From contig DMXO01000003.1 in the NCBI GenBank assembly GCA_003482855.1, positions 16,275-80,274 of the forward strand: a stretch of DNA of 64,000 bases. The letters are read 5' to 3'. Position 1 is the stretch's first letter. Every line of letters starts with the position of its first letter. Positions 271 to 51,350 of this stretch are shown one piece after another. The position numbers and the translations under genes were made by a program. The notes below the pieces were generated by a model. That model saw only the letters and a list, made by a program, of their open reading frames with translations. It had not been told where the DNA came from and ran no database searches. The DNA is from Candidatus Magasanikiibacteriota bacterium. Lineage in GTDB: Bacteria > Patescibacteriota > Patescibacteriia > Magasanikbacterales > UBA922.

Positions 271-520
271 AGTAATAATATAAAAATATGTACGTATAAT
301 AAAACAAAAAATCCCTCTTTACAAGGGACTCTATGTGATCCTGACAACGGCAACACATATCACTACCCCTGTAAAACCAGGTGGGTGGCCGCAATCATAC
401 CCCACGGGGCATGAAAATATAGGCTTCCCAATGTAGTAATATTGTCGAATAGGATAAGTGCTGTCGTGTAAAGCAGGATCACTCTTAGTATAATATGCAA
501 TTCTATAAAAGGTCAAATCA

Positions 521-1045
521 TTAACCAGTCTTGCCTAATTCGTCATAACCAGGTTCCTCAAGTGGAACGTTCTTCGCATGATCACTAGGCATAGGAATTA
601 CTTTACCACCTCTATCTTCCACTTCGATAACAGGCTTATCAAACAAACCTAATTTATTTTTTACCATAGCCAAAGTATGCATCAATTCCCGAGCGACCTC
701 TCCCCTTTCACTTCTCCTACTTTGAGTTTGATATATACCCATGAGATGATGCAACTTACGCATATCTCTAGAGATTTCATCGCCATCAGGATGTTGTTCT
801 ACAACAACACCAAGTTTATATACCTCATCGTCAACTTTATCTATATCAAATTCAAAAATATCTGGAGCTACGTCTGCTACTTCTTCAACTTCATATTCTG
901 TTTCAGGAATACCTGTCATTCGTCTATCGTGAGCAACGGCTGACGTTATTGGTTCTGTTTCAAAATGCTCAGGTTGTGACATAAACTGACGATACGAACC
1001 TCTATCTTGGTAATTCATATAATTATTTGCATATGCAAAAGACAT
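521..1045 (-). CDS. hypothetical acidic protein
   Basis: 174-aa ORF with host-like AT-rich composition. No recognisable motif. Confidence 0.5.
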   Translation of the reverse strand: MSFAYANNYMNYQDRGSYRQFMSQPEHFETEPITSAVAHDRRMTGIPETEYEVEEVADVAPDIFEFDIDKVDDEVYKLGVVVEQHPDGDEISRDMRKLHHLMGIYQTQSRRSERGEVARELMHTLAMVKNKLGLFDKPVIEVEDRGGKVIPMPSDHAKNVPLEEPGYDELGKTG

Positions 1046-1560
1046 ACATAGTATGTCCTAAGCAGGCTTTGATTGTCAACATCATAAAACAAGAAACGCC
1101 TCGTCACTATCTACCATGAACTCATTACTCAGATAACATAACTCATGTATGTTGTGTTATCTGTATCATGTGTCATGATACATACTGACGAGGGGGCAGC
1201 GCGAGCAGACGAACAGAACCACACCCTCCTCGCCGACGACCACATACGATCGCCAAAGCACCGAACGTGGGGCTACCGAGTGCCCCACAGCACTTCGAGC
1301 CGAGCCTCACGGGCCGGCACACCTTGCGCCAGAAGAAGGCGCAGAAGATAGTGCTGTTGGGCGGTCATCTCCCTGGTATTTCGGCGCTTGGTGGGCGGTG
1401 GCGTCGCCATCGGGCTGTTCTGAGTCGTCATAAGACACCTCGAAACGAAAGTGCCCGTCCTCTACCTATGGGACGGGTCGCATGAAAATGAAATATCACT
1501 TCCACACAACCCGTCCCAAAATGCGCTGCCAAATTAAATCTCCTTATATAAAGAACTTCC

Positions 1561-1594
1561 TATGCGCGGGGGATACTAGGTAACTCCCGCGCAT
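1561..1594. other. GC-rich near-perfect hairpin (tatgcgcgggg...ccccgcgcata) just downstream of the micro-ORF
   Basis: 11-12 bp inverted repeat read directly. No U-tract follows, so it is not a classical terminator. Confidence 0.4.
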
Positions 1595-1598
1595 ATAT

Positions 1599-1724
1599 TC
1601 ACCGTGCCGGTATCATCTGTTTGCCACACTTGGGACAGCGCGGCAATTTAGACGACCCCTGCTCAGTGATTTTTCTCACCTGTTTACATTTCGGGCAATA
1701 CGCCCGCAGGTTCTTCTGGCTCAT
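1599..1724 (-). CDS. 41-aa zinc-ribbon micro-protein (CPKC...CPKC)
   Basis: Manual translation gives MSQKNLRAYCPKCKQVRKITEQGSSKLPRCPKCGKQMIPAR. AGGAGGA lies 4 nt upstream of the ATG. It is absent from the ORF track because it is under 60 aa. Confidence 0.45.
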   Translation of the reverse strand: MSQKNLRAYCPKCKQVRKITEQGSSKLPRCPKCGKQMIPAR

Positions 1725-1830
1725 CTATCCTCCTATTGATTGGTAACCAGATAAAGAAATTTCTTGAGAAAACTGCTTATATCTGGTCATCAAGGGCTTA
1801 CGAGACATTGTAAGCTTCCTTAACAAACAA

Positions 1831-1860
1831 AATCCCCGCCTTTTGCAAGCGGGGTTATTT
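1831..1860. terminator. rho-independent-type hairpin (ccccgc-cttttgcaa-gcgggg) flanked by A/T tracts
   Basis: Sits immediately downstream of the minus-strand ORF at 1876..2133. T-tracts on both sides. Confidence 0.5.
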
Positions 1861-1875
1861 ACTCATGTGTATCAT

Positions 1876-2133
1876 CTATTCATCACAATTGCATTCATCA
1901 CCACAACCACATCCACCATTACATCCTTCATCCTCTGAGTAAATTACCCCGCATGCTGGGACATATGCGGGTACAATAAGACCCCAGACCTTGCGGAGGT
2001 TGAGTACTGAAAGAATGAAATGTTTAGATATAGAATTCATAGATGTTGTATCACTAAATATAGTGTAACAGCATATTAATACATGGTCAACCGAGGTTAT
2101 CCACAAAATACCCTTGCGGGCTTTCAGTGCCAT
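1876..2133 (-). CDS. hypothetical small protein with Cys-rich C-terminus (…CNGGCGCGDECNCDE)
   Basis: 85-aa ORF followed by a terminator hairpin. Coding status uncertain. Confidence 0.35.
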   Translation of the reverse strand: MALKARKGILWITSVDHVLICCYTIFSDTTSMNSISKHFILSVLNLRKVWGLIVPAYVPACGVIYSEDEGCNGGCGCGDECNCDE

Positions 2134-2361
2134 ATAGATGACATCGAGGCTACCATCACTTTGATATCAAAATATCTCGCCATTCGTTATAATACCACCC
2201 CGGCACTTTTGATACTTTTGGTGACAAAAGTACGAAAGAAAAACGTACACACCCACTAGCTTCTCTGATGGTTTTTATATTAATAAAAAACTCATGGATA
2301 TTATACCACGAGTTTTGATCCAAACAATCATGAACTTTAACAACCCCAACAGCACCAAAAA

Positions 2362-2844
2362 CTATTCTCTTTCCTCATCAATATACACATGCATATATTC
2401 GGTCTTATCATAATCACAAATATCTTCTTCAGAGAAAAATCTGGCCACTTCTGTCTTAGCTGTCTCCACACTATCTGATGCATGAATCACATTGCATGCG
2501 ACACTCATAGCAAAGTCCCCACGAATAGATCCTGCTTCTGCTTCACGTGCTTTGGTAATGCCAGTAATCTTGCGTACCGTATTTACCACGTCCAATCCTT
2601 CCCAACACATAAGTATGACAGGAGTGCTCTGCATAAAATGTGCAACTCCAGGGAAAAATGGTTTATCAGCAATATGCGCATAATGCTCTTTCAGAATTTT
2701 CTCACCAAGCCGCATCATTTTCATGCCAACTAACTTCAATCCTTTGTGCTCAAATCGCTGAGTAATAGTACCCACAAGACCGCGTTGGATGCCATCGGGT
2801 TTAATAATGACGAGTGTTTTTTCTTTGAGTCCAGTAAAATCCAT
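2362..2844 (-). CDS. ndk: nucleoside diphosphate kinase
   Basis: IIKPDG motif and NVIHASDS active-site region. Typical ~150-160 aa length. Confidence 0.9.
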   Translation of the reverse strand: MDFTGLKEKTLVIIKPDGIQRGLVGTITQRFEHKGLKLVGMKMMRLGEKILKEHYAHIADKPFFPGVAHFMQSTPVILMCWEGLDVVNTVRKITGITKAREAEAGSIRGDFAMSVACNVIHASDSVETAKTEVARFFSEEDICDYDKTEYMHVYIDEERE

Positions 2845-2916
2845 ATGTATTTTTTAGTAGGTTAATTGGCAAAAGTATAACGAAATAAAAGGAAGAAGTC
2901 AAGGATGATCACTAGT

Positions 2917-2946
2917 AAATTGTCAAATTGTTAAACTGTCAAATTG
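2917..2946. repeat. left arm of ~30-bp inverted repeat flanking the four-helix-bundle gene (aaattgtcaaattgttaaactgtcaaattg)
   Basis: Reverse complement of 3338..3374 matches at about 27 of 30 positions. Confidence 0.5.
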
Positions 2947-2957
2947 CTGGGTTAAGA

Positions 2958-3332
2958 CTATTCTTTCAAACGCTGGTTAGTAAAATTTATCAAATTATTA
3001 ATCTCTCTCGGTAGATTATTTAATTCTTTCAAGATAAAAAGGTATTGTTCTTCATTGACCAATTTTCTTACCTTGGATTTTTGATTCCAGTCTAACGCTT
3101 CCTTGACTGAACCAGAAGCATATCGGTAAAATTTTATTTTGTCTTTTTTGGTATATCTTCCAAACCCCTCAGCAATGTTTGCGGAAATAGAATCAATAGC
3201 TCTTACAAATTGAGATCCAACTGTTTGTTTTTCAAACCATCCAAACTTAATTACAATATTCCATACGTAATTGGAAAGGTGAAAAGCTAGCTTATATGAA
3301 CTAACATTTTTTAATTCCAAAAATTTATCCAT
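2958..3332 (-). CDS. four-helix-bundle protein (23S rRNA intervening-sequence-protein family, TIGR02436-like)
   Basis: MDKFLELKNVSSYKLAFHLSNYVW...ANIAEGFGR pattern. Start set at the internal Met (3330-3332), because the upstream 16 codons are encoded by the flanking inverted repeat and overlap the uvrD stop. Confidence 0.7.
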   Translation of the reverse strand: MDKFLELKNVSSYKLAFHLSNYVWNIVIKFGWFEKQTVGSQFVRAIDSISANIAEGFGRYTKKDKIKFYRYASGSVKEALDWNQKSKVRKLVNEEQYLFILKELNNLPREINNLINFTNQRLKE

Positions 3333-3337
3333 ACGAA

Positions 3338-3374
3338 CAATTTGACAATTTAACAGTTTAACAATTTTACAATT
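3338..3374. repeat. right arm of the inverted repeat flanking the four-helix-bundle gene
   Basis: caatttgacaatttaacagtttaacaattttacaatt is the reverse complement of the left arm. It overlaps the last codons of uvrD. Confidence 0.5.
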
Positions 3375-5460
3375 CATCCAGCCCCTTCAAAAAACTTCGG
3401 CGCGGAGTATCCTCATCCAGTGATTCATACGTTACATCGTCATCATCGCTACTTGGATCAAAAAAAGTCGTGTCGTCCTCGTTTGTATTGTAATCTATCA
3501 AATCTCTATTTATCTCATCAATAAAAGGACTGGGGCCCTGCAATAAACTATGCGAATTCGACACAAGTGGATATGTGAGATACAAATATTTTTTTGCACG
3601 GGTAATAGCCACATAAAAAAGTCGTCGTTCTTCTTCTAAATCATCTCCTCGTGACGCTCTATCATTGGGGAATTGCCCAGCAGACACATTCAACACAAAA
3701 ACAGCAGACCACTCAAGCCCTTTTGCCTGATGGACTGTAGAAAGAATAAGCCGTTCTTCATTCCCCCCAGAATTATCATGGGCCTGCTGAGCATGGTAAC
3801 TCTCTTGCAATGTAGCTTCTCCCAGAAATCTATCCAATGCTTCAGATGGATCCTCAAGCGACATGTAACGTTCAGCAAAAACCGCAAGCTGTTCCAAATC
3901 CTGCATACGATCACGATAATCTGGATATTCATTTTCCAAATATTCCTGATACTTTGAGTCAATCACTGCACGGATAAGTTCGCTTGGTATTTTATTATGT
4001 ACCTTATTCAACTTTTCCCATATCTGCAAAAAATCACTCCACCCTATTTGCCCGCGTGCTGGCAACACAGAACCCAAATGGCGCAAATGCTCTGTACGTA
4101 CGGGCGGCTCTAGAGCCGCCCCTCCTGCGACAATCTTCTCATAAATTTTCTGCACCCCCGCTGGCCCAATCCCCACCTGCATATTAAGTACTCTACTCCA
4201 TGCAATAGTGTCTTGGATATTATTATACATACGCAAATATGCCAAAATATCTTTCACATGGGCGCGCTCAAAAAAACGTATACCTCCACGATAATCATAA
4301 GGAATATCTTCCTTTGTAAGTCTCATTTCAAGCTGTTGGGAATGAAATGCCGCACGAAATAATACGGCAATCTCACTCAGAGGGACACCTTCATCGCGCA
4401 ATTCTGAAATTCTATTCAAAATAAATTCTGCCTCTTCTCCTGCATCAGTAAACGCGTGAACCTCTGGCTTGGTAAATCCCTGCAGTACACTTACCAGTTC
4501 CTTCTTATACTGTTTAGTATTATTTGCAATCACTTCATTTGCCACATCCAAAATCTCTGGAGTGGAACGATAATTTGTTTCTAATTTAAATATCTTTGCA
4601 TCTGGGTATACTGTTTCTCCACCAGAGGCGGATCCGCCTCTGGCGGAAAAACTCAAAATATTTTGAATATCTGCCGCACGAAAACTATAAATACTCTGGG
4701 CATCGTCACCAACGACCAAAATATTTTTATGAATTGACGCACACAAATTAATAATACTCGCTTGTATTTTATTGGTATCCTGATATTCATCTACGAGTAC
4801 ATACAAAAATTGTTGCGCGTATTTATTTCTTACGTCTTCTGATTTGAGCAGGAGCAAATGAAAATATACCAGCAAATCATCAAAATCCATGACGTTTGCA
4901 GATTTCTTTCTCTTGGTATATTCTTGGGCAATACTCACGAGTATATCTTCGAAATTAATCCACTGTTCATGTTGCAATTCCAAAACATCATGTATCGTCA
5001 TTTCTGCATTACGCGCATAACTAATAATAGACTGCACAACATTGGGTGAAGGAAATCGACGCTGTGTCCGGTCAATCCCCTCTTGTTTAATACATGACTT
5101 GATCATGTCCCTAGAATCTTCACTGTCAAGTACGGAAAAATTATTTTGAAACCCGAGAACTTGAGCATACTTTTTCAAAATCCTATATCCAATATGGTGG
5201 AAAGTTCCTGACCAAGGCAATGTAATTTCTCCTTGAGTCAACTCTTGCACACGGCGTATCATCTCGTGCGCAGCTTTATTGGTAAACGTCACAAGCAAAA
5301 TATTTTTTGGGTCAACCCCTTTTTCAAGCAAATATGCCACGCGGTAAGTAATCGTACGCGTCTTTCCGCTTCCCGCTCCAGCCAAAACCAAACAAGGGCC
5401 ATCGCCCTCTAATACAACTCTCAGCTGTTCAGAATTCAACTCTTTGTCAAAATTTATCAT
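3367..5460 (-). CDS. uvrD: ATP-dependent DNA helicase, UvrD/PcrA family
   Basis: Walker A motif GAGSGKTRT plus helicase motifs (DEYQDTN, TNYRST). 697 aa. Confidence 0.9.
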   Translation of the reverse strand: MINFDKELNSEQLRVVLEGDGPCLVLAGAGSGKTRTITYRVAYLLEKGVDPKNILLVTFTNKAAHEMIRRVQELTQGEITLPWSGTFHHIGYRILKKYAQVLGFQNNFSVLDSEDSRDMIKSCIKQEGIDRTQRRFPSPNVVQSIISYARNAEMTIHDVLELQHEQWINFEDILVSIAQEYTKRKKSANVMDFDDLLVYFHLLLLKSEDVRNKYAQQFLYVLVDEYQDTNKIQASIINLCASIHKNILVVGDDAQSIYSFRAADIQNILSFSARGGSASGGETVYPDAKIFKLETNYRSTPEILDVANEVIANNTKQYKKELVSVLQGFTKPEVHAFTDAGEEAEFILNRISELRDEGVPLSEIAVLFRAAFHSQQLEMRLTKEDIPYDYRGGIRFFERAHVKDILAYLRMYNNIQDTIAWSRVLNMQVGIGPAGVQKIYEKIVAGGAALEPPVRTEHLRHLGSVLPARGQIGWSDFLQIWEKLNKVHNKIPSELIRAVIDSKYQEYLENEYPDYRDRMQDLEQLAVFAERYMSLEDPSEALDRFLGEATLQESYHAQQAHDNSGGNEERLILSTVHQAKGLEWSAVFVLNVSAGQFPNDRASRGDDLEEERRLFYVAITRAKKYLYLTYPLVSNSHSLLQGPSPFIDEINRDLIDYNTNEDDTTFFDPSSDDDDVTYESLDEDTPRRSFLKGLDEL
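4616..4650. repeat. GC-rich perfect palindrome (ccagaggcggatccgcctctgg + cggaaaa) inserted in frame in uvrD
   Basis: A 22-nt perfect palindrome inside AT-rich coding DNA. Encodes the loop ...SARGGSASGGE.... A near-identical element lies in aroB. Confidence 0.6.
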
Positions 5461-5473
5461 AAAACAACATTTT

Positions 5474-5616
5474 TAATTCACCTAATTTCTAATTGTCTAA
5501 TTCACCTAACAAAATTCCAAATGCCCAAATCATAATTTTTACCTTTTAATTTTTATTAGGTGAATTGGGTGAACCACGTAGATATTTACGTGGTGAATTG
5601 TAATTTAGGTGAATTC
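5474..5616. repeat. MITE-like intergenic element, copy 1 (terminal inverted repeats aattcacctaa / ttaggtgaatt)
   Basis: Multiple aattcacctaa units at the left end and ttaggtgaatt units at the right end. The internal core matches the core at 11108..11217 in the opposite orientation. Carries an extra palindromic insert, ccacgtagatatttacgtgg. Confidence 0.6.
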
Positions 5617-5634
5617 TATAATAACACACCTTGA

Positions 5635-6828
<1,194 letters not shown>

Positions 6829-6862
6829 AAATCTGTAAAATCCATATAAATCAGTGTAATCA

Positions 6863-7549
6863 ATGTTTATGAAATACAAATATCTTGATCTCATCACCGC
6901 TACTTTTGCTGTGGTATTAATTCTTTCAAATATCACCAGTGCTGCAAAAATCAGCAACGTGTGGGGTTTTGTTTTTGATGGGGGGATGATCCTCTTTCCA
7001 CTTGCCTATATCTTTGGTGATATATTGACTGAAGTGTATGGCTATGCCCGTGCACGACGCGTCATCTGGATCGGCTTTGCCATGAACCTACTTGCGGTTA
7101 TTACTTTCTGGGTTGTGGGAAAACTGCCTGCTGAAAGTTCATGGGGACTACAGGAATCGTATGACAGTATATTGGGAATCGTGTGGCGTATTTCCCTAGC
7201 AAGCCTTATCGCCTATCTTGTAGGTGAATTTTCAAATAGTTACATCTTGGCAAAACTAAAAATAAAAACCCAAGGAAAATATCTGTGGCTTCGAACACTG
7301 AGCTCAACAATCATAGGACAATTTCTTGATACTACCATCTTTCTGCTTATAGCATTTGCTGGTGTATTACCATGGAGTATCATCTGGTCTATCTGGATAG
7401 CAAATTACATATTCAAAATTTTAATCGAAATTATATTACTCCCAATCACATATCGTGTGGTCAATTTCTTGAAAAAGAAAGAAGATGCCGATGTATATGA
7501 CAAAGAAACCAATTTTAACCCAATAAAAATAGAACACGGATCAAACTAA
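6863..7549 (+). CDS. yhhQ: queuosine-precursor transporter (YhhQ/DUF165 family)
   Basis: Polytopic membrane protein with the ...AKISNVWGFVFDGGMILFPLAYIFGDILTEVYGY... pattern. Adjacent to tgt. Confidence 0.7.
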   Translation: MFMKYKYLDLITATFAVVLILSNITSAAKISNVWGFVFDGGMILFPLAYIFGDILTEVYGYARARRVIWIGFAMNLLAVITFWVVGKLPAESSWGLQESYDSILGIVWRISLASLIAYLVGEFSNSYILAKLKIKTQGKYLWLRTLSSTIIGQFLDTTIFLLIAFAGVLPWSIIWSIWIANYIFKILIEIILLPITYRVVNFLKKKEDADVYDKETNFNPIKIEHGSN

Positions 7550-7607
7550 TCTAACGAATCATAATGAATTCGTTCAAATTCGTTACATTCGCGCTCTATT
7601 ATTTCAT

Positions 7608-8081
7608 ATGATACATATAACGGTAATATCTGTTGGAAAACTCAAAGAACAATATTGGAAAGACGCAGAAAAAGAATATCTCAAACGTCTGTCTGTTTTT
7701 GTAAAACTTGAGATAAAAGAACTGAAAGAAGAAAAATTTGATGAAAAAAGTAATCACGAAACTATAAAAGAAAAAGAAGCTGAAAAAATTACAAAAGCAA
7801 TTCCTGAAAATAGCCATGTCATTGCCTTAGATAAAGACGGCAGACAATATTCATCACACGATTTATCAGATCATCTACAACAATTAGAACAGTTACAACA
7901 TTATAACATTACCATAGTCATCGGCGGTCCACTAGGTCTTTCTGACGAAATCAAACACCTCGCCAAAGAGTCTATTTCATTTTCCCAAATGACCTTCACC
8001 CATCAAATGACGCGAATTATCTTACTTGAACAAATATACAGATCATGTATGATACAAAAAGGTAAGACATATCATTACTGA
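7608..8081 (+). CDS. rlmH: 23S rRNA (pseudouridine1915-N3)-methyltransferase RlmH (SPOUT)
   Basis: MIHITVISVGKLK...WKDAEKEYLKRL N-terminus. ~155 aa. Confidence 0.8.
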   Translation: MIHITVISVGKLKEQYWKDAEKEYLKRLSVFVKLEIKELKEEKFDEKSNHETIKEKEAEKITKAIPENSHVIALDKDGRQYSSHDLSDHLQQLEQLQHYNITIVIGGPLGLSDEIKHLAKESISFSQMTFTHQMTRIILLEQIYRSCMIQKGKTYHY

Positions 8082-8086
8082 CACAT

Positions 8087-8857
8087 ATGGTAGCAAATGA
8101 AACATCTCCACAATATAATGGAGCCCAGGAATTAGATACGCGAGAAACAACACCGGGACGCGAAACTGAGGTACCTCGCTTTATATCACTTGCAGAAGCG
8201 CGAGAAGAATTACTAAATTTAGAACGAGTACTTGAATCGTACCCAAAAAATATTGAACAGGCAAAAAGAGAAAATAAAAAACATAGGAAAACATTTGCAG
8301 CTTTAAGTTCTGTATTTGGATATGTCACGCTTGCTTCGAGACTGCTAAGGACATACGGATGGGACACAACAGAAATTCGTACTATAAAAGATCACATAAG
8401 AAATGGTTTTGATATTAGACATTCTGACAATGACAAAAAACACCATGTACCAGGTGTACAAGAAATACAAAAAGCTATCGGGCAAAAAGGACAAGAAATT
8501 ATGCAACACATCCCTCATGCTACTCTTCAAAAATATGGCACAGACAATACACCACTTCTTCCTGCTATTATACTCAAAGGAAGATTTGTCGAAGGAGCAA
8601 AAATGCTTGGTGAAAGTCGAGGAATGAATGAGAAAGAATTAGAACAAAAACATAAAGAACTTGAAGCAGAAGTGCGAGCAGATTTCGAAGAATATTTTCA
8701 AAATTATGATGCATTCCTCAGAGATGAACATGGCGGTGGTATATCGAATGGATTGGTAGATGAATTGGATCTTCTCATACAAACAACAAAATCAACTCTC
8801 ATACAGGCAATAAACCCGGAAGAACGCATACAACTAGTACCAGAAAATCGAGCCTAG
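8087..8857 (+). CDS. hypothetical protein
   Basis: 256-aa ORF with host composition. No motif recognised. Confidence 0.5.
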   Translation: MVANETSPQYNGAQELDTRETTPGRETEVPRFISLAEAREELLNLERVLESYPKNIEQAKRENKKHRKTFAALSSVFGYVTLASRLLRTYGWDTTEIRTIKDHIRNGFDIRHSDNDKKHHVPGVQEIQKAIGQKGQEIMQHIPHATLQKYGTDNTPLLPAIILKGRFVEGAKMLGESRGMNEKELEQKHKELEAEVRADFEEYFQNYDAFLRDEHGGGISNGLVDELDLLIQTTKSTLIQAINPEERIQLVPENRA

Positions 8858-8885
8858 GCTCGATTTTTATTATATGTTGAATACG

Positions 8886-9983
8886 CTATATAATGAGCAT
8901 TGCATCTCCAAAACTATAAAATCTATACTTGTACTCAACAGCTTGCTTATAACACTCGAGCATAAATTCCCGATCACCTGCAAACGCACTCACCAACATG
9001 AGCAATGTTGATTTTGGCAGATGAAAATTAGTAATCATGGCGTCTACTACTTGAAATTTGAAGCCTGGTTTAATAAAAATATTTATATCACCATGATAAA
9101 CTTCAAATTTTTTATCTGCATATTCTGCCAAACCAGCGACTCCTTCAAGTGTGCGAACGGTGGTCGTCCCTACCGCTACTATTCTTCTACCTTCAGCTTT
9201 AGCACGATTAATTTTGTCTACGTTCTCCTGTGTCAATTCGATCCACTCACTATGCATAGTATGATCCTCCACACGTTCAGACTTTACAGGAAGGAATGTA
9301 CCAAGACCTACATGCAAGGTAACTTCAGCAAACTCAACTCCTTTGTTTTTTAATTTCTCTATAAGTTCCAGCGTAAAATGAAACCCTGCAGTTGGCGCGG
9401 CGACCGAACCTTCTCTTGCATCATGTGCATACACAGTCTGGTACATTTCGAGCTGGTCAGGTTCATCTTTTACATATGGTGGCACAGGGATATGCCCATA
9501 AATGTTAGCCTTTCTCCGGACTGTTTCAGCATCTTCGGGAAACTCAACTAAGACATCGCCATCCGGCTCTTTGACCATAACCGTACAATAAAAATCAGAA
9601 GCAAATCTTACATTCATACCCGGTTTCAACCTCCTACCTGGCTTTGCCAATACTTTCCATACGCCTTCATTTTCCATAGGACGAACAAGAAAAATCTCAA
9701 CTTCTTGATTGTGCAACAATGGCTTGTCTGGCATCCCATCTCTATTTACATCAATCTCTGTTGACTCAAGCCTTCCAAATAGACGGGCTTTGAAAACTTT
9801 AGAGTTATTCCACACGAGCAAATCTCCTTTTTGTAAATAATCAACAATATCATAAAAATGACGGTCTTGCGTCGTCTTTTTTGCAGGGTCCACAACCATA
9901 AGACGTGAATGATCACGCGGGGTTATGGGATGTTGCGCGATTAGTTCTTGGGGGAGATTGTAATCAAAATTTTTTGTAAACAT
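8886..9983 (-). CDS. queA: S-adenosylmethionine:tRNA ribosyltransferase-isomerase
   Basis: N-terminal DYNLPQELIAQHP. 365 aa. Confidence 0.9.
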   Translation of the reverse strand: MFTKNFDYNLPQELIAQHPITPRDHSRLMVVDPAKKTTQDRHFYDIVDYLQKGDLLVWNNSKVFKARLFGRLESTEIDVNRDGMPDKPLLHNQEVEIFLVRPMENEGVWKVLAKPGRRLKPGMNVRFASDFYCTVMVKEPDGDVLVEFPEDAETVRRKANIYGHIPVPPYVKDEPDQLEMYQTVYAHDAREGSVAAPTAGFHFTLELIEKLKNKGVEFAEVTLHVGLGTFLPVKSERVEDHTMHSEWIELTQENVDKINRAKAEGRRIVAVGTTTVRTLEGVAGLAEYADKKFEVYHGDINIFIKPGFKFQVVDAMITNFHLPKSTLLMLVSAFAGDREFMLECYKQAVEYKYRFYSFGDAMLII

Positions 9984-10050
9984 AATATCTCAATATCATA
10001 ATATCTTGATATCAACCATGCTGATATTAAAATATTATGATATTACGATA
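9984..10050. repeat. AATATC/GATATT-rich tandem and inverted repeat block in the queA-mltG intergenic region
   Basis: atatctcaatatcataatatcttgatatcaa...ctgatattaaaatattatgatattacgatattgat. Same octamer family as 61940..61970 and the blocks inside aroB. Confidence 0.45.
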
Positions 10051-10056
10051 TTGATC

Positions 10057-11097
10057 TTACCGAAGATACCTGTTTACATTCACATTGTGTTCTTCCAACG
10101 TCTTTGCATATTTTACTTCTCCTTCTGGAGTGGTAAGAAAATACCAATAGTCATTTGGCGTGGGATACATAGCAGCCATAATTGATTCAAAACTTGGATT
10201 GCTAATTGGTCCAAGAGGTAGCCCAGGATATTTGTATGTATTCCATGGTGACAGCGAATCTCGATCTTCTTTGGTTGTGAATACATTGCCCTTCTTCCCC
10301 ACTGCGTAATGCACCGTAGAATCTGCCTGAAGCGCCCAATTCAAATCATAACGACGCCAGAATAAATCCGAAACCACTTTTTTATTTTTTTCTCCTCTCA
10401 CTTCACGCTCGAGCAAACTAGCGACAGTGATGACTTCATATACACTTCTACCCGATGCTTCAATGTCAGCATACATCTCTTCGGTAAATTGTGAATCCCT
10501 ATGTTGTACCAATTTGGAAACAATGTCAGTGATACTCGCATCTTTGAAAACTCTAAATGTATCCGGAGACAAATATCCCTCAAGACCAAAATAATCAGAT
10601 TTATCTTGAAGCACTAAGACATCATCAAAAGGTTGTGGAGCATATTGCCCTGCTGCTTTATAATTGTATGCGGGTAAACCAACAACATCATAAAATTCAG
10701 TTGAACTTGCAATACCTTCTTGCTCGAAATACTCAGCGATATCACGAAGATCCCAACCAGGAATGATAGTGATCGTCCGTTCGCCCACCCCCGGAAGCAG
10801 AAGAGTATTGGCTACACGCGCTATAGTAATCGGCGCGTCTACTTCATAATCACCCTGTTGTATTTTTCTGTCTATTCCTTTCCAAATCAAATATCGACGA
10901 AATAGCCATGCGTTCCTCACAACTTGTTCATCAGCGAGGCGCTTCGTCATTGCACTCACATCTTCACCATTTTTTATCTGGAATGAAACTTTCTCAACTT
11001 TTTGCGCCTCGGCTGTATATATTTCTGAATAAAAAAACCACACACCAACAACAAGGCAGAATATGATGATAAAAAACATTATCTTTTTCATGTTCAT
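10057..11097 (-). CDS. mltG: endolytic murein transglycosylase MltG (YceG-like)
   Basis: N-terminal TM segment plus YceG domain. 346 aa. Confidence 0.8.
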   Translation of the reverse strand: MNMKKIMFFIIIFCLVVGVWFFYSEIYTAEAQKVEKVSFQIKNGEDVSAMTKRLADEQVVRNAWLFRRYLIWKGIDRKIQQGDYEVDAPITIARVANTLLLPGVGERTITIIPGWDLRDIAEYFEQEGIASSTEFYDVVGLPAYNYKAAGQYAPQPFDDVLVLQDKSDYFGLEGYLSPDTFRVFKDASITDIVSKLVQHRDSQFTEEMYADIEASGRSVYEVITVASLLEREVRGEKNKKVVSDLFWRRYDLNWALQADSTVHYAVGKKGNVFTTKEDRDSLSPWNTYKYPGLPLGPISNPSFESIMAAMYPTPNDYWYFLTTPEGEVKYAKTLEEHNVNVNRYLR

Positions 11098-11107
11098 AAC
11101 ACACTAT

Positions 11108-11217
11108 AAATTCACCTAAATTACAATTCACCTAATTCATCTAATAAAAATTAAAAGGCAAAATTATGATTTTGGTATTTGGAATTTTGTTAGGTGAATT
11201 AGAAATTAGGTGAATTA
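11108..11217. repeat. MITE-like intergenic element, copy 2 (inverted relative to copy 1)
   Basis: aaattcacctaaattacaattcacctaa ... ttaggtgaattagaaattaggtgaatt. The core is the reverse complement of the copy-1 core, with about 3 mismatches over ~45 nt. Confidence 0.6.
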
Positions 11218-11223
11218 AAAATT

Positions 11224-12276
11224 CTACAAATACTTCCCCTTCCCCTCTCCTTCTATTTTTTTAAGTAACTCTTTCACACGTGGTACATCATCTTTGTGAC
11301 ACACAAGAAGAGCATCCTTGGTATTTACAACCATCATACCCTTGAGTCCAATAGTCGCTACGAGACGATGGTCATCTTCATTCAAGATAAAACAATCTTT
11401 TGACTCAAGATCTATGACATGACCTTTTTCAAAATTTTTCTGTTCATCACTCACAAGTGCCTCTTTGAGCGCATAGAGTGTGCCGGGATCGCTCCATCCC
11501 AAATCAACTTTAAGTACAATAGCTTGGTCTCCATACACATGCTCAACAATTGCGTTATCAAATGATATGGCTTCAAGATGCTCGTATGCGGTATGTATGT
11601 CACTGACACCGCTCACAATATCTTCAAGTGCCATATACATCTTGGGCTGGTACTTACGATACAAGCCCAATACAAAATCGATATCGAATACAAAATAACC
11701 AGGATTCCACATCCACTCACCCGATTCAAACATTTCTTGGCAACGCAATAATTCGGGTCTGTATTTCCACTCTTTGAATGCATACAGTTCTCCATCTATT
11801 CGTTCGCCAAGACGTATCCATCCCAAATTATGATTTGCAAAACGAGGTTGTTCACCCAAAAATACAAATCTATGTGGATTTTCTTGTATCAAATTCTCTG
11901 CCTTCGTGAGTGCATCACGAAAACGATCAGGGTGACGCATAAAATGATCCGCCCATAACATAGCTATAGTACCAGAAATACCCTGTTGTTTGAGCCGCAT
12001 GAGGGAGAGACCAACCGCAGCAGCCAAATCTCGTCGTGCCGGTTCTCCAAAAATATTCGCTCGCGGTACTTCAGGTACTTGCCCACATACCATATTTACA
12101 TATCTATTGTTGGTAGAAATATAAATATGTTTGAAGCCAAATTCTTCAATACGTTCAACAGCCATCTGCAACGTCGATTTATTATCTTTTAATACTTCAA
12201 ACTGTTTGGGGCTCGACTCACGGCTCAGTGGCCAGAGACGTGTGCCAGATCCACCAGCGAAGATGAGAATAGTCAT
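11224..12276 (-). CDS. mannose-1-phosphate guanylyltransferase (NDP-sugar pyrophosphorylase)
   Basis: GGSGTRLWPLSR nucleotidyltransferase signature. Confidence 0.75.
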   Translation of the reverse strand: MTILIFAGGSGTRLWPLSRESSPKQFEVLKDNKSTLQMAVERIEEFGFKHIYISTNNRYVNMVCGQVPEVPRANIFGEPARRDLAAAVGLSLMRLKQQGISGTIAMLWADHFMRHPDRFRDALTKAENLIQENPHRFVFLGEQPRFANHNLGWIRLGERIDGELYAFKEWKYRPELLRCQEMFESGEWMWNPGYFVFDIDFVLGLYRKYQPKMYMALEDIVSGVSDIHTAYEHLEAISFDNAIVEHVYGDQAIVLKVDLGWSDPGTLYALKEALVSDEQKNFEKGHVIDLESKDCFILNEDDHRLVATIGLKGMMVVNTKDALLVCHKDDVPRVKELLKKIEGEGKGKYL

Positions 12277-12329
12277 AAAATAAACAAAAATAAATTACAA
12301 AATATAAATGTGCACAAAATCCGAATATC

Positions 12330-12419
12330 GAAATACGAAACAATAATAAAATTCTAAATTCAAATGTTTAAAACTTTTTGAAAATTCGAATTTGTTTCGA
12401 ATTTCGTATTTCGAATTTT
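12330..12419. repeat. imperfect inverted repeat (ccgaatatcgaaatacgaaacaa / ttgtttcgaatttcgtatttcgaa)
   Basis: Shared tcgaaatacgaaa units in the intergenic region. A related aatttcgaaatt palindrome lies at 13025-13040. Confidence 0.35.
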
Positions 12420-14672: not shown

Positions 14673-17015
14673 ATGAGCGGAACGACGACGCGCAAGATCG
14701 CCGGCATCGCCGGCAAGGACTGGCTCCTCAACGTGACCGGGATGAAGGTGTTCGGCGACTCGCTCCTCACGGAGCGGGTGCGCAAGGAACTCTCCCGGTT
14801 CGCCTGGGTCCTCCTGATCCAGTTGATCGTGGACCTCTGGGTCTGGACCACCCTGTGGTCCTACGCCCTCCCGAGCTCGATGTTCTGGTCCCTGTCGCTC
14901 GGAACGATGTTCGCCCTGTTGATCTTCAAGGTCGACCAGGGCGTCATCACCCACGACACGTCGAGTGACGAGGGACGCCTCCGGCCGATCATCGGCCGAG
15001 CGATCCTCCTGCTCATGATCGCGCTCATCACGGCCCTCGCCGTGGAACTCGGCGTGTTCGCCACGGCCATCGATCGGCGACTCGACCAGCGCGAGAACAT
15101 CGCGGTCACGGAGCTCAAGGAGACCGAGATCGCGAAGATCAACAGCAAGTACCAGAAGCTGATCGACCAGGCGCGTGCCGACGGCACCGAGGCCACGTCC
15201 CACGCCCAGACCACGGGGCAGCAGGACGTTGAGTCCTACAAGTCCCAGCGTGCCACCGAGCGTGCCTCAATCGAGGCCCGGTACGCGGCCGACAAGAAGG
15301 CCATCGAGGACCAGATCGCCGCCGGCGACCAGCGCATCCTCGACGAGACCAAGGGCCGTTTCACCGGTCGCTCGGGCATCGGCCCCATGGTCATCGCGCT
15401 CCAGCAGGAGAAGGAGAAGGCTCTCGGTGAGCTCTCCAAGATCCGCCAGGCCGAGGCCACCGAACTCGGCACCTTCGACACCACTACCGCGGCCTCCATC
15501 GCCTCGCTCGAGAGCAAGCGCGACACCGACACGGCCACGGCCACGACGACCAACAAGGCGAGGGTCGAAGGCCTCCAGATGCAGTGGGAAGACAAGGTGC
15601 AGGAGATCCGCGAGATGAATCGCGACCGATTCGCCACCATCTACGGTGGTGACTGGAAGCAGGATCGCGGCTTCCTCACCAGGTTCCACGCGCTCCAGGA
15701 GATGGCGAGCGAGGACTCGATCATCCAGTGGCTCATCTGGGGCACCCGGCTCCTGATGATGATCATCGGTATGGCCATCCTCATCCTCAAGCTCAGCTCC
15801 AGCCGTGAGTTCGTCAACTACTTCTCCTACCGGGCGCAGATCGCCGCCGGCAACCCCGACGCCACCGCCCACGCGGAAGCAGAAGGGTACAACGACCCCA
15901 CCAACCGCAAGGCACTCGCCTGGCCACCCGAGACCCTCGAGGTCATGGGTGCCCTGCACATGGCGCGACTCAACCTGTGCAAGGCCTGGCGTGCCTGGTG
16001 GCAGCAGGCCGGTGAGACCTGCAAGCAGGACGCAAAGACTGGCCTCTGCCGGTCCCGCGATGACGTCGCCACCCAGCTCCGGCTGGCGTGGAACTTGACC
16101 GTCCAGCCCATGGTCGACGCCCTGGCCACGGCCGAGCGTGAGGTCGAGCTCAACGGCCGCAGCATCCCCCGCTGGGATGAAACGCGCTACCCCGAGCCCG
16201 ACCCCCGCAACATGACCGAACCGTGGGACCTGTCCGACACGCAGCTCCGCGGTCTCGGATGGGAGGACCCCTCCGAGAAGGTCCGTGATGCCCAGGAGGC
16301 CGTGATTCAGCTGCCGGGTCTCTACCGGCAGATCATCGACTTCATGGCGACCATGGACATGGGAACCCGGCGGCAGATCCGCACTGCTCCGGCCACCTCC
16401 CTCCTCGTGCTCGAGGATCGGCGCTTCCAGTTCTACCACACGCAGATGCGTAGGGTCCTGGAGGACATGGAAGATGCCGAGCGCAAGATCGCTTCGACCG
16501 GTCGGCACATGCCCGAGCGTCCCCGCTCCCTGCGGGAGACGGACCAGATCCGGGAGTGCTGGCGGCTCGACCGCCGCACGCTCCGTGACTGGGGCTGGCA
16601 GCAGGACGTGCCCCGCAGCACGCCCCCTGCTCCGGCTCCTGTCCGGACCCCGGCTCCCACGACCACCTCGGCCCCGACCGCCACGCCCCCGGCCCCGCCG
16701 GTGAACACCGTCTCGACGTCGCTGCCCGAGGTCGACATGTCCCTGACCGGTGACGACGCGACCCGCGTCGACATCCGGCCCCCGGCCGAGCTGGCCGACG
16801 AGACGGACGACGAACCCGAATTCGACGTCGGGGCCGATCTCTCGGAAGCCGACACGAACCCGGGGTCGATCCACCCCGACCTCGTCGCCATCCAGACTGA
16901 GGGCGGCAACGGACAGACGCCGCCGGTCAACGGCGATGGCTTCGGCCAGGACGACATGGCGTTCTTCCGCAGCGAGCCGGAGACGGCCACGCCCGGCGAC
17001 AAGCTGGCCAACTAG
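14673..17015 (+). CDS. GC-rich membrane protein (N-terminal TM helices, central coiled coil, third TM, acidic Pro/Thr-rich C-terminal tail); DUF4407-like architecture
   Basis: Codon third positions are almost all G/C in this frame only. AGAGAGGA SD 5 nt upstream. Composition differs sharply from the flanking DNA. Confidence 0.7.
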   Translation: MSGTTTRKIAGIAGKDWLLNVTGMKVFGDSLLTERVRKELSRFAWVLLIQLIVDLWVWTTLWSYALPSSMFWSLSLGTMFALLIFKVDQGVITHDTSSDEGRLRPIIGRAILLLMIALITALAVELGVFATAIDRRLDQRENIAVTELKETEIAKINSKYQKLIDQARADGTEATSHAQTTGQQDVESYKSQRATERASIEARYAADKKAIEDQIAAGDQRILDETKGRFTGRSGIGPMVIALQQEKEKALGELSKIRQAEATELGTFDTTTAASIASLESKRDTDTATATTTNKARVEGLQMQWEDKVQEIREMNRDRFATIYGGDWKQDRGFLTRFHALQEMASEDSIIQWLIWGTRLLMMIIGMAILILKLSSSREFVNYFSYRAQIAAGNPDATAHAEAEGYNDPTNRKALAWPPETLEVMGALHMARLNLCKAWRAWWQQAGETCKQDAKTGLCRSRDDVATQLRLAWNLTVQPMVDALATAEREVELNGRSIPRWDETRYPEPDPRNMTEPWDLSDTQLRGLGWEDPSEKVRDAQEAVIQLPGLYRQIIDFMATMDMGTRRQIRTAPATSLLVLEDRRFQFYHTQMRRVLEDMEDAERKIASTGRHMPERPRSLRETDQIRECWRLDRRTLRDWGWQQDVPRSTPPAPAPVRTPAPTTTSAPTATPPAPPVNTVSTSLPEVDMSLTGDDATRVDIRPPAELADETDDEPEFDVGADLSEADTNPGSIHPDLVAIQTEGGNGQTPPVNGDGFGQDDMAFFRSEPETATPGDKLAN

Positions 17016-28855: not shown

Positions 28856-29115
28856 ATGTGAATGACTGAATTTTAGGTTATAGGTTATAGGTATTAGGTA
28901 GATTAGATTTTTAAATCAGAATATATAATACTTATCTAAATACCTATAACCTAATACCTTCTAATAATATCATAATCTTGACATTGGTTCCAAAAGATGT
29001 TTATATAAAATACTTTGTTCTTTATATACATCGTTGGTGCTGTACCTATTTATTTATACAAATAGATATATACGGCATCAACGACGCGGGCGATGACCCG
29101 CACAGGAGGGATCTC

Positions 29116-51235: not shown

Positions 51236-51313
51236 AACATTGATTACACTGATTTAACATTGATTACACAGATTATTCAGCGTAATCCTGACTAATCTGT
51301 GTAATCAATGTTA
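51236..51313. repeat. repeat element immediately upstream of trpS with a perfect 20-bp inverted repeat (aacattgattacacagatta / taatctgtgtaatcaatgtt) and an extra tandem half-copy
   Basis: Same family as 24706..24757 upstream of nusA. Confidence 0.55.
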
Positions 51314-51350
51314 ATTTTAGCTCTAAACCATCTAAAAAACAAGAGACGGA

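Follow-up and report, generated by a model that had tools for sequence, protein, structure and literature searches.

The intervening sequences (IVS) of ribosomal RNA and the S23p/IVP proteins have been known since about 1990. An IVS is described as a selfish element with terminal inverted repeats round an S23p-type ORF; it is excised by RNase III (the cutting has been demonstrated for the IVS of Coxiella), its mobility has only been hypothesised, and a 2016 study still described the function and origin of IVS and of S23p/IVP proteins as unclear (PMC4990558). ORFs of this kind are also present in rRNA insertions of CPR bacteria (PMC11270868), and PF05635 resembles Avd (PMC10053308). In the 23S rRNA of Leptospira, Coxiella and Xanthomonas, and in rRNA genes of CPR bacteria, an inverted-repeat stem surrounds one small PF05635/TIGR02436 ORF; these insertions are regarded as selfish and horizontally transferred, and enterobacteria have short IVS that lack an ORF. 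The other elements that invite comparison are bacterial MITEs such as the Correia elements of Neisseria, ERIC/IRU of enterobacteria and RUP/BOX of pneumococci. They are intergenic, multi-copy, modular and 100-200 nt long, with imperfect palindromes or inverted ends; they often abut or overlap the ends of genes and are co-transcribed as hairpins.

The 64,000-nucleotide stretch of Candidatus Magasanikiibacteriota DNA analysed here (the window) carries two short elements that resemble both. The reading that explains them best, at a probability of about 0.7, is that they are non-autonomous, MITE-like derivatives, shorn of their ORF by deletion, of an IVS-type palindromic selfish cassette that occurs widely among Patescibacteria. 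This cassette shares with the rRNA IVS its inverted-repeat stem round a single small PF05635/TIGR02436 ORF. It differs in lying between protein-coding genes instead of in rRNA helices, in having arms made of arrays of 8-11-nt units that are specific to the protein clade, and in giving rise to short derivatives that are multi-copy. What is new here is an IVS-like cassette at many non-rRNA sites, with its own arms for each protein clade and with many ORF-less derivatives; together with differences in insertion between species, such features are what a mobile element would be expected to show. The literature searched describes neither these arms, nor MITEs from Patescibacteria, nor four-helix-bundle cassettes as mobile units at non-rRNA sites.

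Copy 1 lies in the gap between the divergent genes uvrD and tgt, and copy 2 between the stop codon of the NDP-sugar transferase gene and the start of mltG, 11 nt from the latter (Table 1). Exact AATTCACCTAA units and their inverted counterparts TTAGGTGAATT number eight in the 64 kb, all of them within 5475-5615 and 11109-11216 (at 5475, 5499, 11109 and 11125 on the plus strand and at 5556, 5605, 11190 and 11206 on the minus strand). When one mismatch is allowed there are 11 matches, against 2.2 +/- 1.4 in shuffled sequence, and none of 100 shuffles reaches 11. The plus strand of copy 1 aligns over its full length with the minus strand of copy 2, from ATTTTTAATTCACC to the last TTAGGTGAATT, with 88% identity over 58 nt of the core and 100% over 24-26 nt of the end arms; the left arm of copy 1 has 8 extra nt, and copy 1 also carries a 24-nt insertion. 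Both copies have the same orientation relative to the downstream gene (tgt or mltG). Their sizes are 141 and 108 nt, the only coding sequence being a four-codon remnant ORF in copy 1. The arms within each copy are complementary to 85-89% over 20-27 nt, and both copies are predicted to form long hairpins (z = -5.7 for copy 1, z = -4.4 for copy 2). The first-pass annotation had described two copies in opposite orientation with inverted terminal units, a shared core, a palindrome in copy 1 and an intergenic location of both; the unit counts and the end-to-end alignment, the core identity, the finding of CCACGTAGATATTTACGTGG and the gene calls agree with it on each point. The copies lie where it placed them, with conserved limits that shift to about 5469-5616 and 11109-11222.

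Table 1. Features of the two elements and their surroundings in the window
Feature	Position	Strand	Remarks
Sister-clade full-length cassette	2911..3374	-	directly after uvrD stop
Sister-clade PF05635/TIGR02436 ORF	2958-3332	-	Pfam E = 1e-21; TIGR02436 E = 3.5e-23
Sister-clade arms	3336-3374 and 2911-2946		five 8-nt AATTGTNA units / four inverted; 30 nt, 90-93% complementary
uvrD	3367-5460	-	
Copy 1, ORF-less element	5469..5616	+	towards tgt; sense by comparison with L228
Copy 1 left arm	5475..5509	+	AATTCACCTAA, AATTTCT, AATTGTCT, AATTCACCTAA units; unit types are the family consensus types
Copy 1 core	5510..5555	+	corresponds to 5' leader, start codon and 3' tail of full-length cassette (alignment to L228 ends)
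Copy 1 remnant mini-ORF	5521-5535	+	ATG CCC AAA TCA TAA, inside core
Copy 1 right arm	5556..5615	+	TTAGGTGAATT, GGGTGAA, GGTGAATT, TTAGGTGAATT units
Copy 1 24-nt insertion relative to copy 2	5574..5597	+	GGTGAA direct repeat at its bounds
Palindrome CCACGTAGATATTTACGTGG	5574-5593	+	inside copy 1 24-nt insertion
tgt promoter TTGATT-N17-TAAACT	5631..5659	+	between element and tgt ATG, outside element
tgt	5668-6828	+	
Gene order after tgt			Vut_1/YhhQ-like transporter, rlmH, 256-aa ORF, then queA (-)
256-aa ORF	8087-8857		without Pfam match
mltG/YceG	10057-11097	-	
Copy 2, ORF-less element	11109..11222	-	towards mltG; sense by comparison with L228
Copy 2 units	11109, 11125, 11134 (1 mismatch), 11190, 11206		start-codon equivalent mutated to ATA
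NDP-sugar transferase	11224-12276	-	

The 24-nt insertion of copy 1 consists of an 18-nt hairpin core and a duplicated GGTGAA, the latter resembling a 6-bp target duplication. Its palindrome CCACGTAGATATTTACGTGG is unique: neither the rest of the window nor any fetched locus contains it again, and the idea that it represents a repeat family of its own was discarded for want of a further copy. At gathering thresholds, Rfam matches one tRNA in the whole window and no rRNA; a known RNA family or riboswitch (preQ1, for example) was rejected as the identity of the element, which has no Rfam match.

When one genome per species is scanned for pairs of units separated by 3-20 nt, the two copies prove to belong to a large family. 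At least 119 loci were found, almost all in Patescibacteria MAGs (among the matches listed, Magasanik-, Uhr-, Moran-, Nomura-, Sung-, Portnoy- and Niyogibacteria, with several bins labelled as other taxa), and the few matches outside Patescibacteria are plain tandem repeats only. The first-pass annotation had allowed for a local duplication with no homologues beyond the two copies; the scan shows these to be two among many. One genome (JAUPKF01) has at least 15 loci and seven others at least 5-8; the 64 kb of the window organism hold two. At least 80 elements, 68-317 nt long, have the same '++..--' layout. They start with 2-4 direct units of the types AATTCACCT, AATTTCT, AATTGTCT and AATTACCT, continue through a TAATAAAAT motif into an AT-rich, roughly palindromic core, and end with ATTTTATTA followed by the inverted units. 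The arms and the inner TAATAAAAT are conserved across elements and the cores are variable: within one genome cores are homologous over 100-170 nt, in either orientation, and between genomes they differ. The gaps that house elements are tandem in 54 cases, divergent in 7 and convergent in 6; because this split matches the background at the same loci (354/45/63), the elements are tied to neither promoters nor terminators.

Some elements contain small, nested GC-rich hairpins. Small hairpin elements (TCACCCCGTTAAATA...TATTTAACGGGGTGA and CCATTCGGCTTGAGCTCATGGCCGAAAGC) also sit within AATTCACCTAA units or arms and recur in several genomes (the same insert at L017 2530-2627 and L087; others in the arms of L005, L077, L105 and L038). 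One short element (L042, 3811-3917) lies in the leader of an rRNA operon, flanked on one side by a tRNA (4608-4691) and on the other by the 23S rRNA gene (377-3299), which begins ~500 nt downstream of it. An element inside 23S rRNA was considered and rejected, since this sole rRNA-linked copy is outside the gene. A phage origin was likewise rejected, a scan of viral contigs having given unrelated tandem coding repeats only.

The long form of the family identifies its kin. Comparison of flanks reveals, at four loci in unrelated genomes (L014, L054, L028 and L113), a conserved stretch of ~400 nt between the '++' and '--' arm clusters. It is an ORF of 119-135 aa that belongs to PF05635 (23S rRNA intervening-sequence protein) and TIGR02436 (four helix bundle protein); full-length ORFs pass the Pfam and TIGRFAM cut-offs, with E = 5e-12 to 1e-21. 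The whole cassette measures ~500 nt, and the genes beside these four are all different and unrelated. A protein search returned 2,176 homologues, of which the best 120 are 73-96% identical and come from Moran-, Sung-, Magasanik- and Uhrbacteria. Three homologues were then sampled blind to their flanks (Magasanikbacteria, L218-223; Moranbacteria, L224-227; Uhrbacteria, L228-229): in all three, AATTCACCTAA and TTAGGTGAATT arrays bound the ORF, each in a different gene context. Counting the four scan loci and the three blind picks, the full-length forms with these arms contain a PF05635 gene in 7/7 cases, with its start codon in or directly after the conserved inner motif (CTAATAAAATG) in 7/7. 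The arm family is thus linked to the PF05635 ORF, a protein for which we know of no catalytic activity. In the predicted fold of the full-length RNA of L228, the arms form a closing stem of 12+3+19 bp. Of what characterises an IVS, the family therefore has the stem round the ORF (L228 fold) and, in its full-length members, the PF05635/TIGR02436 ORF, which the window copies have lost; location in a 23S or 16S rRNA helix is absent, the window having no rRNA and the elements lying between protein genes.

The relation of the window copies to this cassette emerges when the ORF of the Uhrbacteria cassette L228 is removed in silico and the remainder is aligned to them. The match is end to end, with 103/117 positions identical in copy 1 (+) and 96/106 in copy 2 (-). 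Identity is 88-91% in the assigned orientation versus 78-84% in the opposite one; given the strong palindromy, element orientation is only modestly resolved by these alignments. Both arms, the leader as far as the start codon and the tail past the stop codon survive in the window copies, and the ORF is gone: copy 1 retains the leader, the ATG and two codons, followed by the last codons and the tail, and in copy 2 the ATG is mutated. Coding remnants also persist in short elements elsewhere, as 21 C-terminal codons in L011 (E = 5.5e-5) and 10 N-terminal codons in L068, which favours derivation of the short forms from the long over the reverse. Because arms and ends are retained and the ORF is lost, the window copies stand to the cassette as a MITE does to its parent. 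The one full-length cassette within the 64 kb (2911-3374) belongs to another clade and is not of the AATTCACCTAA type.

Evidence on mobility comes from four orthologous gaps at which presence or absence differs among relatives of the window: uvrD-tgt, tgt-yhhQ-like, mltG-transferase and prfA-pap2. The tgt-yhhQ-like gap contains an element in L126 and is 34 nt long in the window; the prfA-pap2 gap contains a CTAATCAC cassette in L127 and is a short, element-free spacer in the window. These differences are between species only, at 66-77% protein identity (window versus L127 and L126). Ten contigs of the source population (Rifle groundwater Magasanikbacteria, GCA_001783195.1) are identical at both copies, and blastn of the flanks against all fetched loci for empty sites at high identity gave only filled orthologues (L102/L012) or diverged sites. 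Because no near-identical pair of filled and empty sites was found, movement is inferred from the comparison between species only. Further findings speak for mobility: multi-copy families are homogeneous within a genome, identical cassettes occur in independent gene contexts, protein identity is unusually high across deep lineages, and ORF-less derivatives exist. The retention of an element by L102 and L012 at one orthologous site, and the absence of a catalytic protein, weigh the other way.

The proposal in the first-pass annotation of a non-autonomous mobile element, specifically a MITE, thus holds in its first part, on the strength of the family, the homogeneity of cores within a genome, the insertion differences and a full-length relative with the same ends. 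The copies are small and non-coding, have terminal inverted repeats, are dispersed in multiple copies (in other genomes) and differ in presence between species, all as expected of a MITE. Strict MITE status is another matter. The Correia elements have a TA target-site duplication; here the flanks of ~90 elements yield nothing beyond an ambiguous terminal AATT, and a duplication would be unreadable because the AATT ends are palindromic and part of every unit. In further distinction from those MITEs, the arms are tandem units of varying number, and the parent encodes a four-helix-bundle protein of PF05635 (the only ORF of the longer form, in 7/7) and not a transposase.

The copies might instead be classical MITEs, derived by internal deletion from an insertion sequence and mobilised in trans by a transposase (DDE or other) that binds the terminal and subterminal AATTCACCTAA repeats, with the PF05635 gene as a passenger in some copies. 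Small, multi-copy, intergenic elements whose terminal inverted repeats contain repeated subterminal units fit it, and so does the excess of short forms over long (~80 to 4 among the matches listed in the arm-based scan). It is nevertheless a distinctly unlikely explanation: none of the ~90 elements inspected has a recognisable target-site duplication, within ~120 loci no arm pair surrounds an ORF of transposase size, and at the loci examined the element is tied to no gene for a transposase, recombinase or reverse transcriptase. A passenger, moreover, would not be expected to be the same gene in 7/7 full-length forms with its start codon set in a conserved inner motif, nor to have a sister protein clade with arms of its own.

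That sister clade is represented in the window by the cassette directly after uvrD (Table 1), whose protein (2958-3332) is barely alignable with the AATTCACCTAA-type protein. Its sampled relatives, at 66-68% identity, come from Curtissbacteria, Falkowbacteria and a bin labelled Alphaproteobacteria. In 3/3 of these, AATTGTTA/CATTGTTA/AATTGCTA arrays flank the ORF on both sides, so that AATTGTTA-type arms occur in 4/4 second-clade cassettes (the window gene and the three relatives). A third arm type consists of the CTAATCAC arrays round the L127 cassette. Arms are specific to the protein clade, and the number of units per array is highly variable. At the Falkowbacteria locus L231 (1040-1200, 1580-1660), ~17 tandem AATTGTTA/CATTGTTA units are seen upstream of the ORF and ~7 inverted units downstream.

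The 11-mer unit remains exact while protein identity drops to 55-75% and cores drift, which suggests that selection acts on the unit sequence itself. The protein that the element encodes is the natural candidate for a reader of the units; the co-variation of arms with protein clade could also be plain co-inheritance. An extension of the main reading, possible but doubtful, would make the arm units binding sites of the cassette's four-helix-bundle protein, which would then be the non-transposase mobility factor of a new class of element; the rRNA IVS would be the best-known insertions of this class and the window copies its non-autonomous passengers. One conceivable route, echoing the partnership of Avd with a reverse transcriptase, is that a hairpin RNA excised by RNase III would be copied back by reverse transcription. 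The cassette proteins and Avd of diversity-generating retroelements belong to the same four-helix-bundle superfamily. They also differ: the cassette proteins score below the Avd equivalog cut-off (the L127 protein gives a weak match to the Avd model, E = 9.5e-7, below cut-off), the cassettes examined have neither a reverse transcriptase nor a template/variable repeat pair, and no reverse-transcriptase family is among the called neighbours of ten cassettes.

Some features of the family suggest service to the host, in which case the element, immobile now or always, would be a structural one: an RNase III or stability site, a terminator, an insulator, or a donor of a Shine-Dalgarno-like AGGTGA. 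Elements typically occupy the entire intergenic gap, with a median of ~15 nt to each flanking gene. About a quarter of the downstream start codons are 1-8 nt past a terminal, Shine-Dalgarno-like AGGTGAATT, and the TAA of the terminal unit doubles as the stop codon of the upstream ORF in 5-6 loci (L020, L036, L075, L081 and L100 are among the loci showing such abutments). An orthologous site of L102 and L012 still holds an element although the flanks are only 86% identical. This explanation is nonetheless improbable. Elements favour neither 5' nor 3' contexts, the T-run of an intrinsic terminator is absent, and presence is patchy between close relatives. The likeness of AGGTGA/TCACCT to Shine-Dalgarno and anti-Shine-Dalgarno sequences is considered coincidental, because sister-clade units of the same layout, such as AATTGTTA, lack it and because the spacing from AGGTGA to ATG in the window, at 14 nt for mltG and 17 nt for uvrD, is far outside that of the downstream starts just described.

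The gene neighbourhood of the two copies at first suggested a regulon operator. A cluster of queuosine salvage genes (tgt, the Vut_1/YhhQ-like gene and queA, together with rlmH, mltG and the 256-aa ORF; 5668-9983) is bracketed by the copies, each of which faces, in the same orientation, an operon with queuosine genes and ends at a -10-like hexamer (TATAAT at 5617-5622; TATAGT at 11108-11103). AATTCACCTAA units might then be transcription-factor operators that co-regulate two convergent queuosine operons (tgt/yhhQ-like/rlmH and mltG/queA), much as the first-pass annotation had offered a repeated regulatory cassette of transcription-factor sites as its other interpretation. That interpretation fails, the same promoters being present in syntenic relatives that lack the element. 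On the syntenic 20-kb contig L127, the genes uvrD to prfA stand in the same order as in the window and their proteins are 58-72% identical (pap2, 49%), and not one AATTCACCTAA unit occurs anywhere; there are no units upstream of tgt in the closest tgt loci either (L120 and L188 at 77%; L126 at 69%). The tgt promoter TTGATT-N17-TAAACT lies outside the element and recurs upstream of tgt in L188, L120 and L126, all of which are without an element there. The motif is, accordingly, not kept at orthologous tgt and mltG promoters (L127, L120, L188, L126). The genes beside elements are unrelated across loci, convergent gaps occur at background frequency, and the copies share long spacer sequences for which an operator array has no need. 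A queuosine-regulon operator or shared promoter was therefore rejected; the operator reading is largely refuted already, with a residual likelihood that is very small, and tgt and the other neighbours are regulated independently of the element. Because the gene order is ancestral, being the same in L127 without elements, the bracketing of the queuosine genes appears coincidental.

To the right of copy 1, on the minus strand, is a promoter-like TTGTGA-N17-TATTAT with a TG extension (5618-5646), which faces uvrD. Copy 1 lies between uvrD and the tgt promoter and, by this arrangement of motifs, probably inside the uvrD leader; if the site is used, the whole of copy 1 would be transcribed as a ~150-nt hairpin in that leader. 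In L188, the closest relative, arrays of ACTTAG/CTAAGT and ATCCGTAA replace the AATTCACCTAA element upstream of tgt (5955-6090).

Palindromic intergenic doublets without target-site duplications also recall REP/REPIN elements mobilised by RAYT (an IS200/IS605-like TnpA), and a short conserved word in inverted pairs recalls the paired DUS of Neisseria, from which an array of DNA-uptake sequences might be supposed. REPINs resemble the present elements in forming intergenic hairpins and in that each element clade has its own protein. Either origin is exceedingly improbable: no RAYT-like ORF lies beside or inside any arm pair (~120 loci of 8 kb), the cassette protein is not an HUH/Y1 transposase, and the unit arrays are AT-rich. 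The units, moreover, are almost confined to the structured element instead of being dispersed in coding DNA as uptake sequences are, and copies number tens per genome, not hundreds or thousands.

To return to the deletion derivatives of an IVS-type cassette, we infer that recognition of the arm units underlies the spread of the copies, whether present or past, with the cassette protein, which a full-length copy would supply in trans, as the candidate recogniser. Once transcribed, the arms are predicted to form a stem of ~30-45 bp. The rRNA IVS suggest by analogy that RNase III would cleave it, so that an insertion in an operon spacer or a 5' leader would be tolerable. The puzzle of the IVS and of S23p, some 30 years old, becomes directly testable in this setting, with thousands of natural variants available for tests of protein recognition. 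Palindromes of 100-500 nt also occupy many intergenic spacers of the small Patescibacteria genomes, where they abut start and stop codons and are likely to break assemblies; recognising them therefore improves the annotation of uncultured lineages.

The window contains other palindromes built of repeated units. One without an ORF (12318-12415), made of CGAAATACGAAA/TTTCGTATTTCG units with an inner AATAATAAAAT, lies between the NDP-sugar transferase gene and pap2. TACGAAA units also form a palindrome in L127 (15280-15370), in the mltG-transferase gap that is the site of window copy 2, and they adjoin AATTCACCTAA arms in L029 and L074. A ATAATATC/GATATTA palindrome (9969-10067) fills the gap from the mltG stop to the queA start, with 46-nt arms that are 76% complementary. 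Two more intergenic palindromes of short repeated units (28875-28959, AGGTTAT/ATAACCT; 51236-51314, TGATTACAC/GTGTAATCA) establish that several families of unit-array hairpins coexist in this genome. Elsewhere, at 14673-17015, a GC-rich island (55-57% GC versus ~38% for the window) encodes a 780-aa ORF with a DUF4407 domain and looks horizontally acquired.
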